The translations under genes and the position numbers were made by a program. From the NCBI RefSeq assembly GCF_048403405.1, contig NZ_CP183131.1: a DNA stretch of 64,000 nt. The stretch is one strand, 5' to 3'. Position 1 is the stretch's first letter, and every line of letters begins with the position of its first letter. The notes below the pieces were generated by a model, which was not told the origin of the DNA, made no database searches, and saw only the letters and a program-made list of their open reading frames with translations. Of this stretch, positions 19,909 through 56,979 are shown piece by piece. This DNA comes from Escherichia coli. GTDB taxonomy: Bacteria; Pseudomonadota; Gammaproteobacteria; Enterobacterales; Enterobacteriaceae.

Positions 19909-20841
19909 TCACCTTCCAACTCTGTAGCTGTTCACGGCGGACTCAACGCGCTTGACTGACACGTCTATACCATTTGTCACCAGCAACTCATGCACTTGGC
20001 AACAGGCCTGTTGTTTCAGGCCAAAGAACTCTTCGTTAACACGGGCATACTCTGCTGCCGAATTGGAGGCGGCTCGTCTTAGATCTGGCATCAGAGATTC
20101 AACGCGAGACTCTACTTTGTCCAGAGAGGAACTGGCAGACGACAAGCTGAACAGCGAGAAGACGCTCCCAAAGTCGAAACCATCATTCAAACCGGCAAAG
20201 TCCATACCCAGATCGATAAACTCAGTTGCCATTGAGTGGTGCAGTGAGCCCACAATGTCACGATGATCCCCCAGCGCATTTGCGAAGGCTTTCACAGCTC
20301 TCTTCGCATCGTCTATTTCACTGCTGGCCGAGGAGTTTGACATCGACGACATGACGGAAATGCCCTTGTTGTCAGTCACAAGGTCGAGAACCTCCATTGT
20401 TTGTGCTGATGAAACACTGGAAGAGGCCTCACTGATTTCACGTAAGGCTTTTTGCCCCATGTCCACCAGTCGCTTGTTGCTCTCGTGGAGTCGAGATGCG
20501 GCGTCAAGCCTATCTTGAGCTTGGGTGATTCGTTCCAGAATCTGGCTACCGTCAATCGCTTGCTTCACGGCCCGAGAAACCAATCCCTCTTTGAGCTGGT
20601 CTCTCCCACGGCGCAAATACCGCAAATCGCTGTTATGGCCTTTTAGTGCTGAACGTATAACGGCGATGTCTCGACGAAACTGCCAGAACGTTATAATTTT
20701 TTGCCAGATCCCCAACTGAGCACGCTGTTGGCAAAGAGCTTCGTACTCTGCACCTTTCTCTTCAACCTGGCTGAGAGCTGCGGTAATCCTGTCTTGATAT
20801 TGCCGGTCGTCAGCCAAGTAACTTTGAATTGCTTGTTCCAT
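19909..20841 (-). CDS. Hypothetical protein (Ser-rich middle region)
   Basis: ORF; ATG at 20841 preferred over the TTG at 20853. Confidence 0.45.
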   Translation of the reverse strand: MEQAIQSYLADDRQYQDRITAALSQVEEKGAEYEALCQQRAQLGIWQKIITFWQFRRDIAVIRSALKGHNSDLRYLRRGRDQLKEGLVSRAVKQAIDGSQILERITQAQDRLDAASRLHESNKRLVDMGQKALREISEASSSVSSAQTMEVLDLVTDNKGISVMSSMSNSSASSEIDDAKRAVKAFANALGDHRDIVGSLHHSMATEFIDLGMDFAGLNDGFDFGSVFSLFSLSSASSSLDKVESRVESLMPDLRRAASNSAAEYARVNEEFFGLKQQACCQVHELLVTNGIDVSVKRVESAVNSYRVGR

Positions 20842-20854
20842 CCCGTACCCCAAA

Positions 20855-20874: not shown

Positions 20875-21035
20875 CATTCTTTCTTTGTTCTGCCAGTACA
20901 AAGTATTTTGCCTTAGAACGACCTCACACCCCGCCCCTGCTCACGCCCATTTTGGGCAATTACAGATTCAGCATTTACAGGCTTATAATGTGATGCCGTA
21001 ATAGACAAATAAAAAACGGCATAGCCGTTTTTACC

Positions 21036-50432: not shown

Positions 50433-51473
50433 TTAGTTCTCCTGTAATTTGTCCCGGATGTACTTCATGAGTTGTTCCGGTGGCACAAAGTTGTCTTTAT
50501 CACCGCTCGCTTGAGATAGCTGTTTGAGGTCAGAGCCCAGCTCTGGTGAGGCCAAGCGTTCGGCTATGTTGTTTTCCAGGTTGAGTACCGGACGTGTACG
50601 GTTAAACTCTTCGTCTGTGACCCAACCATTGCGTTTTGCTGCGACCAAAATCCTGTGATTCAGCTCAGGAAGAGACATTGGCCCTTGTCCTATAGGAGCG
50701 AACTGACCGTCTGGAGATGCGAGGTAAACAGCAGGGAAAGTTACGATACCAAGTTGTTTGGCATGGCCTTCATCGGTTTTGTAATGGGGGAAAAGCCCAC
50801 TGGGGAGTGGTTTGCCGTCCATAGATACAGGAATGATCGAGAATCCTTCTCCTTGTTCCAACATCTTGATGAGCGGTGCTTGCAAGTCACTGTAGTCATC
50901 GTCGGACTTGTAGAAGAAGAATATCCCTACGCGTTCGGCTACGCTTTTGAGTAGCATGTTTTTGGCGTTACCAGCGTCACGATCAACTTGTTGTGAGGCA
51001 AACGTGGCAGCAGGACGTCGAGTAATTTCATCCAAGAAAGGATCACCTACGACCGCCAGCTCTGTAGCATCGGAAAATTGTTCAGAGCGATCTATCGCAA
51101 ATCGTTGCAAGTAGAGAAACGTCCTGACGTTTTCAACGGTAGGATTGTTCCAAGCAAGGTCTTTGTACTTGGGTAAGTTTTCCCGGAACCATTCCGCTGA
51201 GAACATTTCTGGGCCGCTCGGAAGCGGAGCAGCAGGCTTAGGCTGTGTAGGCTTCGCTTCTGCCACAGGCTTTGGTTTGGGCTTTTCGGGTTTTTTCTCT
51301 GGTTCTTTGGGCTCTTCCTTGTACCAGAACCAACCCTCTTCCTTTCGCTCATAAAAACCAGGTCTTGTGCCATCTTGAGCCCAAGCCTGGTGTGATGCCC
51401 CCAGCGTGAGCGCTGCAAGGAGCAGTAAATTCAAAGGTGATTTTTTCATAGTCTCACGCACGTATTTTCCCAT
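50433..51473 (-). CDS. traF: F-type T4SS TraF (thioredoxin-like pilus assembly protein)
   Basis: 346 aa, signal peptide, Pro/Lys-rich linker; N-terminal …GFYERKEEGWFWYKE… motif. Confidence 0.8.
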   Translation of the reverse strand: MGKYVRETMKKSPLNLLLLAALTLGASHQAWAQDGTRPGFYERKEEGWFWYKEEPKEPEKKPEKPKPKPVAEAKPTQPKPAAPLPSGPEMFSAEWFRENLPKYKDLAWNNPTVENVRTFLYLQRFAIDRSEQFSDATELAVVGDPFLDEITRRPAATFASQQVDRDAGNAKNMLLKSVAERVGIFFFYKSDDDYSDLQAPLIKMLEQGEGFSIIPVSMDGKPLPSGLFPHYKTDEGHAKQLGIVTFPAVYLASPDGQFAPIGQGPMSLPELNHRILVAAKRNGWVTDEEFNRTRPVLNLENNIAERLASPELGSDLKQLSQASGDKDNFVPPEQLMKYIRDKLQEN

Positions 51474-51554
51474 GCTCGATATGGTAGAGGTGGGAGGCGT
51501 GAAATTAGGCAGGTGTAAGCGCCCATTTAGGGCGCTTAGAGCGTTTTATTTGTC

Positions 51555-51572
51555 AACTTTCACATGTGAAAG
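51555..51572. promoter_or_regulatory. Palindromic operator-like site (copy 8 of 8)
   Basis: aactttcacatgtgaaag between the helicase stop and the traF start. Confidence 0.5.
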
Positions 51573-51583
51573 AATTGACCAAA

Positions 51584-53116
51584 CTATTTGGTCGTGTCCT
51601 CTTCAACTTCTGTCGCTTCTGCGGCCATCTTCATCTGCTTCTCGACCATGCGTTTTTGGGTGATGTAGCGGATAACCATCTCGACAGCGCTGTTCAACGC
51701 AAGGATTCGCATCGCTCTGGTGGATGCAACGTAGAGCAGGTTTATTTCATCGTCACGGGCCATTGGGTCGAGCTCTGGGTCCAGGACATCCGGAAAGTCG
51801 TCATAGAGCTGAACAAAGTCCCACTCCAACCCTTTGCACCGATGAGCTGTTGAGACCGTAATGTCAGCCCCAAACTCTTCTTTGACTGTATTGCGTCGTA
51901 GAGTGGTGAGTCGTTCAGGGATTTCATCGTAGCTGTTGATGATCTTGACAGCCCTCATCATCTCAGGGTCTTTGGTCGCCTTCGCTACTTCTTGATACTC
52001 GAAGTAGTCTTCATACTCATCAAGCAGTTTCTTATTCTTTACCCGGTCTGGCTCTGCCATCGAAAACCAGTACAAATCCTGGAGCTCATTGATCTGGTAA
52101 GCGTCGATTCCACCGACCCAGAATACCTGCGCTCCGGATTCGGTCGCAGAGAGCGCCGTCTCTATAACCCCCATGACGGTTCGGTGAAGTATTGCGCGGT
52201 GGCCCACGTCACCTGGTAAAAACATGAGTACCTGATCTGCTGGTCCCCGGCCAACAACAGGTCGTGTTTCACCTTTGAGTTCAAGAAGGGCGTTTGCCAC
52301 CAGCGAAACGTTGGGGCCAAAGCGGAAGCTATGAGTGAGATAGAGTTGGTCGGCGTTCATGAGCTCTTTGCTATCAAGGGCGTTGTTTGCGCCTCTGAAC
52401 CTATAGATCTGCTGGTGGCGATCTCCAACCAGGATTACCTTGCAGTTCTGCTGTAGGACGATGCTACTTGTTACGGGGTTAGCGTCTTGTGCTTCATCAA
52501 AAAGAATGGTGGTGTACCGGCGAGACAGATTCGGCATCCCGAGCTGATACTGTTTGAGGTAGCAATCGTGTACGGTCGGGAACGGATCTTGAACGTTTGT
52601 CATCCGTTTCCATATGAGCTCAGCACCTTCGACCACCTGGATTTGGTATCTCTCCTGTTTGGACGTAAGCACTTTACCCGTATCGGCGCGAGCAAAATGC
52701 GTATAAAGAATCCGCATGTCTGCACTACACATAAAGGCGTTGAGCGTATCGAGAATATCTTTGGCAAACGTCCAGTTCTTGGTATTCACCGCTTGGGCAA
52801 TATCGGTGAGCCTTAGGTTGCCGGAGAGTTTGTGCTGGTAGCCCCTTCCTATAGTGGCGTAGGCAAGCTGGTGGGACGTTTTGCAGTCTACGTTTGCAGG
52901 AAACTTTTCTCTTGCCTCGTCGCGGATAGCCCTGTTGTATGCCAAGTAGAGGATACGTGAATCGAGGTTGTTGTGGGCGTACTTCACCAGTGTCGTGGTT
53001 TTACCCGTTCCAGCGTAGGCCTTAACGACAAGGCGAGGCCCTTTGTACTGAGTGATCAGTGATTGTTCTGGTGTGTCAGGAGGAAGTTGTTTCATGAGGC
53101 CCCCTACGACAAACAC
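51584..53116 (-). CDS. Superfamily 1 (UvrD/Rep-like) DNA helicase
   Basis: 510 aa; Walker A AGTGKTT, motif II FDEAQD, C-terminal motifs (VSTAHRCKGLEWDFV, LLYVASTRA). Confidence 0.8.
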   Translation of the reverse strand: MFVVGGLMKQLPPDTPEQSLITQYKGPRLVVKAYAGTGKTTTLVKYAHNNLDSRILYLAYNRAIRDEAREKFPANVDCKTSHQLAYATIGRGYQHKLSGNLRLTDIAQAVNTKNWTFAKDILDTLNAFMCSADMRILYTHFARADTGKVLTSKQERYQIQVVEGAELIWKRMTNVQDPFPTVHDCYLKQYQLGMPNLSRRYTTILFDEAQDANPVTSSIVLQQNCKVILVGDRHQQIYRFRGANNALDSKELMNADQLYLTHSFRFGPNVSLVANALLELKGETRPVVGRGPADQVLMFLPGDVGHRAILHRTVMGVIETALSATESGAQVFWVGGIDAYQINELQDLYWFSMAEPDRVKNKKLLDEYEDYFEYQEVAKATKDPEMMRAVKIINSYDEIPERLTTLRRNTVKEEFGADITVSTAHRCKGLEWDFVQLYDDFPDVLDPELDPMARDDEINLLYVASTRAMRILALNSAVEMVIRYITQKRMVEKQMKMAAEATEVEEDTTK

Positions 53117-53382
53117 ATCTGGAGAGTGATGCGCTTCTTTTGTGTCGAGAGGAACGTACTGATCCGCTTTTCTTCTCGGGGGAGGGATACTTCACAATCC
53201 AGATCTGTCCACCAGTCTGGGGCTTTACCTTGAGCCACCTCCGTAACCCAACTATGGAGACGGTGTAACCAGCGATAGTCGCCAATAGATGAGGTGGCTA
53301 GTGTCATAGCCTCCTCAATCTTGGTTTGAAGAGCCGCAGCTCTGTGTCGCCACTCTTCTGAATATTTAGCCTTTCGCGCCAT
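53104..53382 (-). CDS. Hypothetical small protein
   Basis: 92-aa ORF coupled between the KfrA-like gene and the helicase. Confidence 0.4.
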   Translation of the reverse strand: MARKAKYSEEWRHRAAALQTKIEEAMTLATSSIGDYRWLHRLHSWVTEVAQGKAPDWWTDLDCEVSLPREEKRISTFLSTQKKRITLQMCLS

Positions 53383-54422
53383 CAGTTTTCCTCTTTCTTT
53401 TTCCCTCCCTTACCAGCTTTAGCGAGCTCTTGCTCCAACCCAGAAATTTTGGTCAGTGCATCATTGAGTCTTTGTTCGAGGCTCTTGGCCTGCTGGTCTT
53501 TTTCCTGCAACTGACCAGCCATCATGCCTTTGTCTTGAACAAGAGCGCGAGCTTCTGCTTCGGCGCTGGATAATTTGGCGTCCAGCTTTTCTACCTCTCC
53601 AGATAGGCGCTGGCACTCTCGTTCAGCGGATTCGCCATGAGCTTTGGCTGTGGCAAGGGAGTCCTGTGATTGGGCCAGTTTGGCCTGTACATTTTCGAGC
53701 TGCTCTTTCAACGATGTTTTTTGTTCCTGAGCGGCCCGGAGCTTTTCTGTCTGCTCTATACTCTTGCCTTTTTGCTCCTCCAACTCACCCTCTGTAGTTG
53801 CCAATTTTTGGCTCAAAGAGCGATTTTCGCTTTTAGCTTGCTCCAGGTGATCCTGTGCTCGGGTCAGATCTGCGGCTTTCGCCTCCAGCTTGCCCTCCAA
53901 CTCAACGATCCGCTTTTCCAGCTTATCAATGTCAGCCAGTGAGCGTTCTAGCTCCGCAGACTTGAGGGATAGCGAGTTTTCTGCCTTACCAAGGGCCGCA
54001 TCGAGCTCTGATTTTTTGTTGGTGAGAGCTTCAAGTTGTTCCTCCAGTAGCTCAGCCCGTTCGGTGGCATCATTTGCCATGTCCACGGCTTGCTGCATAT
54101 CTTCCTGGTACTCAATTTCTTTCTGTCGTAGCAGTTCACGCTCGCGCTCAAGCTGTTCATCGGCGCTTGCTTTGGCTACCGTATAGATCTTCTGTAGGAA
54201 GAGCTCAGCATCGCTCATAACCGATTCTGGAAGGACTACCTCTACCAGCTCTTCATCGAGGGAGTGTTCCTCTGACCACTGTTTGAGATACGTTGAAATG
54301 GTGGTAAAGCTCCCCTTGCCAATGATGTCTCTGATAGCGATGACCGTTGGGCGTTTACCGGCGTCCTTGAGCTTTTGGGCCGCAGCCGCTACATCGTCAA
54401 ACTCAACCAATTTTCTTGCCAT
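53382..54422 (-). CDS. KfrA-like protein (N-terminal DNA-binding domain plus long coiled coil)
   Basis: 346 aa; N-terminus MARKLVEFDDVAAAAQKLKDAGKRPTVIAIRDIIGKGS…; remainder is heptad-rich E/K/A/L/Q. Confidence 0.65.
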   Translation of the reverse strand: MARKLVEFDDVAAAAQKLKDAGKRPTVIAIRDIIGKGSFTTISTYLKQWSEEHSLDEELVEVVLPESVMSDAELFLQKIYTVAKASADEQLERERELLRQKEIEYQEDMQQAVDMANDATERAELLEEQLEALTNKKSELDAALGKAENSLSLKSAELERSLADIDKLEKRIVELEGKLEAKAADLTRAQDHLEQAKSENRSLSQKLATTEGELEEQKGKSIEQTEKLRAAQEQKTSLKEQLENVQAKLAQSQDSLATAKAHGESAERECQRLSGEVEKLDAKLSSAEAEARALVQDKGMMAGQLQEKDQQAKSLEQRLNDALTKISGLEQELAKAGKGGKKKEEN

Positions 54423-54450
54423 GAGAACGTTCCTTTTAATTTGTAATGTT

Positions 54451-54495
54451 TACGATAATTACGATAATTACGATAATTACGATAATTACGATAAT
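54451..54495. repeat. Tandem 9-bp repeat (tacgataat) x5 plus degenerate copies
   Basis: Five perfect head-to-tail copies 29 bp upstream of the KfrA-like start. Confidence 0.9.
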
Positions 54496-54608
54496 ACGGT
54501 AATTATCATAATTATATATCATGCTGCTGTCGATTGGAATTGTTTGTGTGGGACAAAGCCCTTCCGGCTGCGGAAAAGCCTTGTTACGCGGTCACGCTGA
54601 TTCATCCA

Positions 54609-54646
54609 GGGGGAGCCCGCAGAATTCGGAAAAAATCGTACGCTAA
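54609..54646. repeat. 38-bp terminal inverted repeat of a Tn1721-type (Tn21 subgroup) transposon
   Basis: ggggagcccgcagaattcggaaaaaatcgtacgctaag; the tnpA stop lies inside it. Confidence 0.8.
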
Positions 54647-56159
54647 GGTTTTCCGGGCATCCGTAAGGGCCGAAACTTCCCGTCTTCCAGTCTGCGGCTC
54701 TGCCGCCAGACGTAATCGCCGGTTAGGTTGATGTGCTCCCAGCCCAGCGGCGACAGGAATTGCAGCAGCTCGCCGTCCACCGGCTTGCCGGCCTCGACCA
54801 ACCCCTGGGTGGCGCGTTCCAGGTACACCGTGTTCCACAGCACGATAGCCGCCGTCACCAGGTTGAGGCCGCTGGCCCGGTAGCGCTGCTGCTCGAAGCT
54901 CCGATCCCTGATTTCCCCAAGGCGGTTGAAGAACACCGCCCTGGCCAGCGAGTTGCGCGCCTCACCTTTGTTCAGGCCGGCATGCACGCGGCGGCGCAGT
55001 TCAACACTTTGCAGCCAGTCCAGGATGAACAGCGTGCGCTCGATCCGGCCCAGCTCGCGCAGGGCCACGGCCAGTCCGTTCTGGCGCGGGTAGCTGCCGA
55101 GCTTGCGCAGCATCAGCGAGGCGGTGACGGTGCCCTGCTTGATCGAGCTGGCCAGGCGCAGGATGTCGTCCCAGTGGGCACGCACGTGCTTGATGTTCAG
55201 GGTGCCGCCGATCAGCGGGCGCAACGTCGGGTAGGCTTGCACGCCCTGCGGCACGTACAGCTTGGTTTCGCCGAGGTCGCGGATGCGCGGCGCGAAGCGG
55301 AAGCCTAGCAGGTGCATCAGGGCAAAGACGTGATCGGTGAAGCCGGCCGTGTCGGTGTAGTGCTCCTCGATCCGCAGGTCGGACTCGTGGTACAGCAGGC
55401 CGTCGAGCACATAGGTGGAATCGCGGACGCCGACATTCACCACGCGGGTGCTGAACGGCGCGTACTGGTCGGAGATATGGGTATAGAACAGCCGTCCCGG
55501 CTCGCTACCGTACTTCGGGTTGACGTGCCCGGTGCTCTCGCCCCGGCCACCCGCGCGGAAGCGCTGGCCATCGGAGGATGAGGTCGTGCCGTCGCCCCAG
55601 TGGGCGGCAAAGGCGTGGCGATACTGGTGGTTGACCAGCTCGGCCAAGGCCGCCGAATAGGTTTCGTCGCGGATGTGCCAGGCTTGCAGCCAGGACAGCT
55701 TGGCGTAGGTCAGGCCGGGGCTCGACTCGGCCATCTTGGTCAGCCCGAGGTTGATCGCATCACCGAGGATTGCGGACAGCAGCAACGTCCTGTCTTTGGC
55801 CTCGGCCCCGTCCTTCAAGTGGGTGAAGTGGCGGCTGAAGCCCGTCCAGTCGTCCACGTCCATCAGCAGTTCGGTGATCTTGATGCGCGGCAGTAACTGG
55901 CTGGTTTGGTCGATCAGCGCCTGCGCCCGATCCGGCACCGCCGCATCCAGCGGGGTGATTTTCAGCCCTGACTCGGTGAGGATGGCATCGGGCAGCTCGT
56001 TGTCCTTGGCCAGGCGGGTGACGGTGGCCAACTGCTCGTCCAGCAGCTGCAAACGCTCTTCCAGGTACTGGTCGCTGTTCGGGTTGATCGCCAGGGGCAG
56101 GGCCTGCTCGCGCTTGAGTGCGGCGAACTTCTCGGCCGGCAGCAGGTAGTCGTCGAAGT
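54643..56159 (-). pseudogene. tnpA: Tn3-family transposase tnpA, 3' portion (Tn1721-like), 5' end removed by IS26
   Basis: 505 codons of TnpA C-terminus ending in the IR; ORF reads into the IS26 IR at 56160. Confidence 0.85.
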
Positions 56160-56979
56160 GGCACTGTTGCAAATAGTCGGTGGTGATAAACTTATCATCC
56201 CCTTTTGCTGATGGAGCTGCACATGAACCCATTCAAAGGCCGGCATTTTCAGCGTGACATCATTCTGTGGGCCGTACGCTGGTACTGCAAATACGGCATC
56301 AGTTACCGTGAGCTGCAGGAGATGCTTGCTGAACGCGGAGTGAATGTCGATCACTCCACGATTTACCGCTGGGTTCAGCGTTATGCGCCTGAAATGGAAA
56401 AACGGCTGCGCTGGTACTGGCGTAACCCTTCCGATCTTTGCCCGTGGCACATGGATGAAACCTACGTGAAGGTCAATGGCCGCTGGGCGTATCTGTACCG
56501 GGCCGTCGACAGCCGGGGCCGCACTGTCGATTTTTATCTCTCCTCCCGTCGTAACAGCAAAGCTGCATACCGGTTTCTGGGTAAAATCCTCAACAACGTG
56601 AAGAAGTGGCAGATCCCGCGATTCATCAACACGGATAAAGCGCCCGCCTATGGTCGCGCGCTTGCTCTGCTCAAACGCGAAGGCCGGTGCCCGTCTGACG
56701 TTGAACACCGACAGATTAAGTACCGGAACAACGTGATTGAATGCGATCATAGCAAACTGAAACGGATAATCGGCGCCACGCTGGGATTTAAATCCATGAA
56801 GACGGCTTACGCCACCATCAAAGGTATTGAGGTGATGCGTGCACTACGCAAAGGCCAGGCCTCAGCATTTTATTATGGTGATCCCCTGGGCGAAATGCGC
56901 CTGGTAAGCAGAGTTTTTGAAATGTAAGGCCTTTGAATAAGACAAAAGGCTGCCTCATCGCTAACTTTGCAACAGTGCC
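56160..56979 (+). mobile_element. IS26: IS26 variant copy, 820 bp (tnp26 56223-56927)
   Basis: Terminal IRs intact; carries Tnp26 Gly177Ser (…ECDHSKLK…) and a synonymous ctg>ctt change shared with the copy at 59588-60407. Confidence 0.96.

Follow-up and report, generated by a model that had tools for sequence, protein, structure and literature searches.

The window analysed here is a stretch of 64,000 nucleotides from Escherichia coli (assembly GCF_048403405.1, contig NZ_CP183131.1), in which a gene for a stand-alone helicase lies directly upstream of the conjugation gene traF and is itself preceded by a kfrA gene and a small open reading frame (ORF). These three genes, at positions 51584-54422, are two functional modules packed side by side, not one system. 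The kfrA gene is transcriptionally set apart, and the small ORF and the helicase gene are part of the conjugation regulon, because a promoter activated by AcaCD lies inside kfrA and drives only the downstream pair. We tentatively propose, with slightly less than even confidence, that the helicase is a conjugation-induced accessory motor, the element's counterpart of UvrD/PcrA, which would unwind DNA from the nick made by TraI at oriT and service single-stranded intermediates. The locus and its regulation by AcaCD are already known; the functional hypothesis for the helicase is new.

The three genes in the IncC backbone

The genes under study and the first gene of the adjacent transfer cluster are the following:

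53382-54422, minus strand: kfrA (vcrx139 of plasmid pVCR94), 346 aa, with an N-terminal DNA-binding head and a long coiled-coil tail predicted from Pfam matches
53104-53382, minus strand: small ORF (vcrx140), 92 aa, a predicted small helical protein
51584-53095, minus strand: helicase gene (vcrx141, annotated 'uvrD'), 503 aa, UvrD-type helicase of superfamily 1A (SF1A), assigned to an FBH1-like clade; alternative GTG start at 53116
50433-51473, minus strand: traF, first gene of traFHG (Pfam TraF, E 6e-66)

All three ORFs that an earlier, sequence-only reading had placed upstream of traF are present with the borders it gave, and Pfam searches bore out its identification of a KfrA-like coiled-coil protein, a small ORF and a UvrD/Rep-like helicase. 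The 3.3-kb stretch is 100% identical to plasmids of incompatibility group C (IncC), of types MOBH and MPF_F, from Klebsiella and other Enterobacterales, and at least 973 PLSDB records cover at least 80% of positions 51400-54700. The synteny of kfrA, the small ORF and uvrD with traFHG was found, with near-identical sequence, in typed IncC plasmids, and the published gene order of the IncC backbone is int, yacC, ter, kfrA, uvrD, traF, traH, traG. Plasmid pVCR94 carries these genes as vcrx139, vcrx140 and vcrx141, in identical order and with identical lengths (1041, 279 and 1512 bp), likewise upstream of traF and with both AcaCD boxes (Carraro et al., 2014; PMC4207636). Judged by this similarity, the three genes belong to the standard, already annotated backbone of IncC (IncA/C2) multidrug-resistance plasmids. 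The arrangement had been called unusual, but it is canonical, kfrA and uvrD both being annotated in the literature.

AcaCD control of the small ORF and the helicase

In pVCR94, Carraro et al. (2014; PMC4207636, Table S3 and Dataset S1) located inside vcrx139 an AcaCD peak by chromatin immunoprecipitation with exonuclease treatment (ChIP-exo), the corresponding motif (106765-106793) and a transcription start determined by rapid amplification of 5' cDNA ends (5'-RACE; 106827-9). A second AcaCD box and start serve traF to traG, and a PtraF-lacZ fusion needs AcaCD for its activity, so that traF-traH-traG is a transcription unit of its own, separate from the helicase gene. Converted to the window and combined with a motif search, the published mapping gives two boxes:

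53790-53818, minus strand: AcaCD box inside the kfrA coding sequence, promoter P140 (core GCCAAAAATTGGCAACTACA, 53793-53812), from converted pVCR94 coordinates and motif search
51511-51539, minus strand: AcaCD box of the traF promoter (core GCCCTAAATGGGCGCTTACA, 51514-51533), from published mapping and motif search

Both boxes lie at the offsets expected from pVCR94, and the published transcription start of P140 maps to about 53755. The motif search of the window returned three matches against 0.49 expected by chance. The third match, an AcaCD-like box (GCCCAAAATGGGCGTGAGCA; 20938-20957, minus strand), has two mismatches to the search pattern and lies about 85 nt upstream of a minus-strand ORF at 19909-20853.

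Expression of the three genes follows this division. In the RNA sequencing of pVCR94 (PMC4207636), which compared the wild type, an acaCD deletion and the complemented deletion, vcrx139 is independent of AcaCD (415, 671 and 422, respectively), and between the deletion and the complemented deletion the value goes up from 14 to 522 for vcrx140 and from 22 to 1825 for vcrx141. The sequence-only reading had regarded the three genes as coupled through overlapping stops and starts. This picture did not hold as a whole: kfrA is constitutive, and the small ORF and the helicase gene depend on the AcaCD promoter embedded in kfrA. The stop of kfrA and the start of the small ORF do share one base (TGATG), but an overlap between the small ORF and the helicase gene requires the GTG at 53116 as start. 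We favour the ATG at 53095, which agrees with GenBank (1512 bp), with pVCR94 and with the aligned N-termini of 21 homologues; it stands 8 nt past the stop of the small ORF and is preceded by a GGGGG run resembling a Shine-Dalgarno sequence.

The AcaCD box also appears in relatives of the locus. Since a pattern allowing one mismatch matches by chance about once per 4.6 kb (a rough estimate), conservation was judged by exact matches, extended identity and consistent positions, and not by counts. In three relatives at 64% identity (L004, L005 and L021), a box 19/22 identical to that of the window is found inside the kfrA-like gene, although KfrA itself is only 37% identical. An Edwardsiella plasmid (L059) that lacks both kfrA and the small ORF carries an exact box 85 nt upstream of the helicase ATG, and in an Eoetvoesiella locus (L007) a box with one mismatch stands at the same distance of 85 nt.

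A helicase of the FBH1-like clade

The helicase matches the Pfam families UvrD-helicase (E 3.5e-16), AAA_19, UvrD_C and UvrD_C_2, with UvrD-helicase, UvrD_C and UvrD_C_2 scoring above the cut-off. The Q motif and motifs I, Ia, II, III, IV, V and VI are invariant across the 21 homologues, and the AlphaFold model has a mean predicted local distance difference test (pLDDT) score of 89.8. The protein is read as an intact SF1A motor of an FBH1-like clade. The search of its domains by profile, which had been suggested as a check, placed the helicase domain of human FBH1 (PDB 9xzj and 9xzm) as by far the closest solved relative, with a profile E-value of 1.2e-109 and 370 bits (query residues 2-476 to FBH1 residues 366-870), a single-sequence E-value of 4.5e-64, and a Foldseek E-value of 4e-37 (template modelling score 0.79, 31% identity). 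UvrD, PcrA and Rep reached profile E-values of about 1e-17, with at most 67 bits, and a Foldseek E-value of 4e-18. Homology to FBH1 thus extends over the full length and stands well above that to other SF1A helicases. Both FBH1 and the IncC helicase have a core of about 500 aa, the chains of UvrD, PcrA and Rep being longer (about 620-650 residues). At 31-32% identity over the whole plasmid protein, the two differ in that the IncC helicase is bacterial and plasmid-borne, has no F-box and begins only seven residues before the Q motif, so that FBH1 residues 1-365 have no counterpart. The similarity hints that the FBH1 motor and the helicase clade of mobile elements could share a specific origin.

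An orthologous relationship to a housekeeping helicase, which according to the sequence-only reading would have spoken against its suggestions, was looked for and rejected. The NCBIfam equivalogs for uvrD, rep, pcrA, helD, recB and helicase IV scored 17-44 bits against cut-offs of 419-1697; all matches were partial, and the best (pcrA) reached 44 bits against a cut-off of 911. The host enzymes UvrD, PcrA and Rep, which serve rolling-circle plasmids, filamentous phages and ICEBs1, resemble the IncC helicase in being SF1A motors with all motifs. They are nevertheless not orthologous to it (17-44 bits against cut-offs of 911-1168), and they are encoded by the host, whereas the IncC helicase is encoded by the element. 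The helicase also matches PHROG 1967 (E 1e-87), and a phage collection held 252 records at E 1e-15 or better, 251 of them below 60% identity. The phage relatives among the matches listed, including Phapecoctavirus, Nankokuvirus and Acinetobacter myoviruses, are about 28-33% identical.

Linkage to MOBH transfer genes

The gene neighbourhoods of helicase relatives were compared in 80 genome loci, 47 of which encode a protein with at least 45% identity to the IncC helicase. Transfer genes directly adjoin the helicase gene in 35 of these 47, as traFHG, a TraI_2 relaxase gene or a pair formed by a type IV coupling protein (T4CP) and DUF4400. The order helicase-traF-traH-traG occurs in seven IncA/C-like loci (an eighth locus of this kind is 41% identical). 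In 16, the helicase gene directly precedes a gene for a TraI_2 (MOBH) relaxase, and in most of these 16 an integrase gene follows; in the two of these loci with called genes, both in integrative and conjugative elements (ICEs; L002 and L009), helicase and relaxase genes overlap by 20 nt and 1 nt. A further arrangement, coupling protein-DUF4400-helicase in one direction, is found in 12 loci from Pseudomonas ICEs, and in IncC itself traI, traD, a hypothetical gene and DUF4400 form one gene block. Plasmid relatives at 35-48% identity reside in MOBH-typed plasmids, two of them 2-6 kb from mobH-traD. A survey published in 2025 lists 'TraG and a putative helicase' among the conserved hotspot borders of PAPI-1-type islands.

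The relaxases examined do not appear to bring a motor of their own. In Pfam, TraI_2 and TraI_2_C are the only matches of the IncC TraI (992 aa) and of two further MOBH relaxases, and no Walker A motif or P-loop was found in these three proteins. Several relatives with the helicase-traFHG order (L018-20, L059 and L007) lack both kfrA and the small ORF. What is conserved is thus the linkage of the helicase to transfer genes, and the three genes are not conserved as a unit. Both co-regulation with transfer genes and linkage to them, as expected of an accessory gene for conjugative DNA processing (Dtr) in MOBH elements, were found for the helicase.

A possible accessory motor of conjugation

Activation by AcaCD implies that the 92-aa protein and the helicase are produced alongside relaxase, coupling protein and pilus. 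We propose that the helicase, with a presumed 3'-5' polarity, would be an element-encoded equivalent of the host's UvrD or PcrA. It may load at the oriT nick introduced by the MOBH relaxase TraI, itself without a P-loop helicase domain, unwind the plasmid while feeding the transferred strand to TraD, and free single-stranded intermediates of bound proteins. In laboratory E. coli the helicase would probably be dispensable, since UvrD or Rep of the host could take its place. Precedents exist on two sides. In UvrD, PcrA and Rep systems, as in the job proposed here, unwinding starts from the nick of an initiator or relaxase that lacks a helicase of its own: a review describes the SF1A helicase PcrA as acting at the nicked oriT of ICEBs1, and rolling-circle replication of CTXphi and Pf is reported to require host UvrD. 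In MOBF relaxase-helicase fusions (TraI of F, TrwC of R388), the element likewise brings its own unwinding motor. These are, however, RecD-like 5'-3' motors of superfamily 1B fused to the relaxase, whereas the IncC helicase is a separate SF1A protein.

Several observations weigh against a role in unwinding transfer DNA. In IncC the helicase gene stands beside pilus-assembly genes, about 70 kb from traI in pVCR94 coordinates. It is reportedly not among the essential conjugation genes in the transposon-directed insertion-site sequencing (TraDIS) of IncC conjugation by Hancock and colleagues from 2020. Natural insertions interrupt it in two plasmids (ISKpn18 in H8 and IS26 in pUO-STmRV1), which also implies that it is not needed for maintenance. 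The papers searched yielded no mention of vcrx141 in connection with an experiment, whether on mutants or biochemical, and vcrx140 appears there only as a promoter name; two TraDIS studies of the Burrus laboratory, designed for exclusion factors and SGI1 inhibitors, are silent on the helicase in their main texts. Below about 38% identity, relatives have no recognisable transfer genes nearby or belong to non-MOBH plasmids, and their presence in lytic phages means that the clade as such is not tied to conjugation.

The main rival, which we regard as unlikely, is that the helicase is an anti-recombinase: it would strip RecA from the single-stranded plasmid DNA formed in conjugative rolling-circle replication or following entry, and so reduce SOS induction and unwanted recombination, as FBH1 does on RAD51 and UvrD/PcrA on RecA. 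FBH1, the closest characterised homologue by the profile scores given above, is an anti-recombinase. Plasmids of Piscirickettsia (89 records) encode a homologue with 33% identity that is fused to the third three-helix domain of RecX (PF21981, E 3e-8), an inhibitor of the RecA filament; in a Piscirickettsia salmonis plasmid (L101:4001-5866) this domain forms the C-terminus. In Vibrio parahaemolyticus pHLA (L099), a homologue with 36% identity is encoded 3 kb downstream of a plasmid-borne recA, and the entry of IncC reportedly triggers SOS (PMC9927553). However, the RecX fusion and the recA neighbour are confined to these distant relatives (33-36% identity), the IncC helicase has neither a RecX domain nor a known RecA-binding motif, and RecA removal alone leaves the tight linkage to relaxase and coupling-protein genes unexplained. 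Unwinding and anti-recombination could be compatible, and UvrD and PcrA perform both unwinding and RecA removal.

That KfrA, the small ORF and the helicase have a joint function in vegetative replication or in segregation, for instance in clearing Tus-like Ter or other roadblocks before the forks, seems improbable. Most IncA/C-like loci do have a Ter (PF05472) gene 1.3-5 kb upstream of the helicase, and in IncP-7-type Pseudomonas loci (pWW53, L011; also L052 and L072) a Ter gene is found 0.4-6.4 kb from the helicase homologue with no tra genes adjacent. This proximity echoes the IncC order ter-kfrA-orf-helicase. Phage relatives are located in DNA-metabolism regions, and KfrA of IncP-1 and IncU are described as maintenance proteins. 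Against such a function, expression of the helicase requires AcaCD and is low without it, unlike that of kfrA; the relatives L018-20, L059 and L007 keep helicase-traFHG in the absence of kfrA and the small ORF; and plasmids with insertions in the helicase gene are stably maintained. Removal of Ter in particular is kept only as a low-probability rival because the ICE relatives have no Ter and because ter has been deleted from the present plasmid (26 nt left) with the helicase gene intact.

A role in defence or anti-defence, with the helicase as a Gabija-like or other immune motor or as an early-expressed counter-defence protein, is in our view highly improbable. PADLOC gave weak and partial matches to GajB models (best 65 bits), and enterobacterial ICEs carry an anti-restriction gene of the ArdC type 0.1-7 kb upstream of the helicase. 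The similarity to GajB reflects the generic UvrD core (about 47 bits, against 370 for FBH1), and no GajA/OLD nuclease or other partner gene is present at the locus. The earlier remark that the helicase has no nuclease partner is correct, the locus being flanked by traF and, at its far end, by a Tn3-family inverted repeat. With its matches weak and partial and no nuclease adjacent, Gabija was rejected as an identification. Moreover, the gene is a fixed part of the backbone and not of a variable hotspot, and it is driven by the transfer activator and not by a leading-region single-strand promoter. Among the functions that the sequence-only reading had listed, transfer is thus favoured for the helicase and maintenance for KfrA, and defence and anti-restriction found no support.

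It is tempting to extend the proposed role in conjugation beyond IncC, although we consider the extension doubtful. The FBH1-like clade might be the 'missing' motor of MOBH conjugation, partnering a helicase-less relaxase and a coupling protein across IncA/C-like plasmids, other MOBH/MPF_F plasmids and ICEs with TraI_2 relaxase and DUF4400/DUF3438 genes, and it might also strip RecA. In that case, the closest kin of the eukaryotic FBH1 helicase domain would be this mobile-element clade and not cellular UvrD, Rep or PcrA. The ICEs concerned presumably correspond to the ICEclc/PAPI-1/SPI-7 group. IncC plasmids are major carriers of carbapenemase and extended-spectrum beta-lactamase genes and mobilise SGI1-type islands, and their MOBH relaxosome is poorly understood; the relaxases examined have no P-loop. 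If the helicase is the motor that unwinds DNA or clears single strands, it would supply a missing piece of the transfer mechanism for an entire class of plasmids and ICEs, would offer a druggable ATPase target, and would account for some of the broad host range by making transfer independent of host UvrD. As a locus, the segment is ordinary backbone; the hypothesis that FBH1-like helicases partner MOBH transfer is of moderate interest.

KfrA and its repeat array

The product of kfrA matches KfrA_N (PF11740) with an E-value of 8.8e-23 and 81.6 bits against a cut-off of 26.1, and residues ~85-340 match CENP-F, tropomyosin and SMC models, as expected of a coiled-coil tail. Two features lie upstream of the gene:

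54505-54533, minus strand: sigma-70-like promoter, probable promoter of kfrA (TCGACA-17-TATGAT, 10/12; consensus match only)
54450-54514, no strand assigned: 9-bp tandem repeat array of 7.3 copies (TTATCGTAA on the coding strand), candidate KfrA operator

The promoter fits the AcaCD-independent expression of vcrx139. The array, 28-92 nt upstream of the kfrA ATG, overlaps this promoter, and from its position it fits a candidate autoregulatory operator. The kfrA homologues of L017 and L005 are preceded by similar 9-bp repeats of the TAATTA type. A blastn search with the region upstream of kfrA gave no match in L017 or L021, and the degenerate 9-bp repeats were found by direct reading. The copy number is polymorphic: the window has one repeat more than most IncC records, which fall short of it by exactly 9 bp (3292 against 3301 bp).

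The operator of KfrA in RA3 is reportedly likewise composed of 9-bp direct repeats. KfrA of IncP-1 (RK2) and IncU (RA3) resemble the KfrA of the window in the combination of a KfrA_N head with a long coiled coil and in a repeat-bearing region over their own promoter. The present locus differs from both in that no kfrB or kfrC follows and that the 3' third of kfrA holds a promoter for unrelated, transfer-regulated genes. KfrA proteins are reported to be autoregulatory. We favour a role of KfrA in plasmid maintenance, as a constitutively expressed protein that probably represses itself through the 9-bp array. In Photorhabdus khanii (L017 8786-9980, 97% identity), about 1 kb with a 203-aa ORF separates kfrA from the homologue of the small ORF; this homologue is missing from the intact ORFs of 70 aa or more listed for the locus.

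The small ORF

The 92-aa product had no match in Pfam, NCBIfam, PHROG or PADLOC. Homologues formed 28 clusters among 5.8 billion proteins, all IncA/C-like, with 11 representatives in 1.84 billion proteins, and the Trp residues are invariant down to 31% identity. The small ORF is a real gene of narrow distribution, restricted to IncA/C-like plasmids. The AlphaFold model consists of three helices (pLDDT 86) and has no fold match in PDB. The small ORF is co-transcribed with the helicase gene, and its product may be a lineage-specific partner or adaptor. HelP of ICEBs1 is a protein with an oligonucleotide-binding (OB) fold resembling single-stranded DNA-binding protein; the all-helical model of the small ORF would not fit this fold. 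In one 225-aa protein (P0154), four separate stretches match the profile of the 92-aa ORF, which suggests a repeated version of the small domain.

Borders of the locus

On the traF side, the ORF begins 110 bp past the helicase stop codon. The published traF transcription start of pVCR94 (109108-109110) converts to 51473-51475, onto the first ATG of the 346-aa ORF, and the true start of traF is therefore probably the ATG at 51461 (342 aa), which matches the annotation of pVCR94. One further feature lies at the end of the helicase gene:

51577-51593, minus strand: hairpin followed by a T-rich tract, weak terminator-like, covering the helicase stop codon (pattern match only)

On the other side, the window differs from pVCR94 in that the end of a Tn3-family transposon replaces the upstream ter gene. 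The genes rhs-int-yacC-ter, which normally stand beside kfrA, are absent on the transposon side of this plasmid, and tblastn found no Ter homologue anywhere in the window. The remnant of the backbone ter comprises its last ~26 nt (54584-54609), which abut the inverted repeat:

54610-54647, minus strand: 38-bp terminal inverted repeat of a Tn3-family (TnAs1-like) transposon, identified by reading the sequence and from the annotation of an identical plasmid

Beside this repeat lies a tnpA ORF (54643-56232), and the repeat marks the border of the resistance region.

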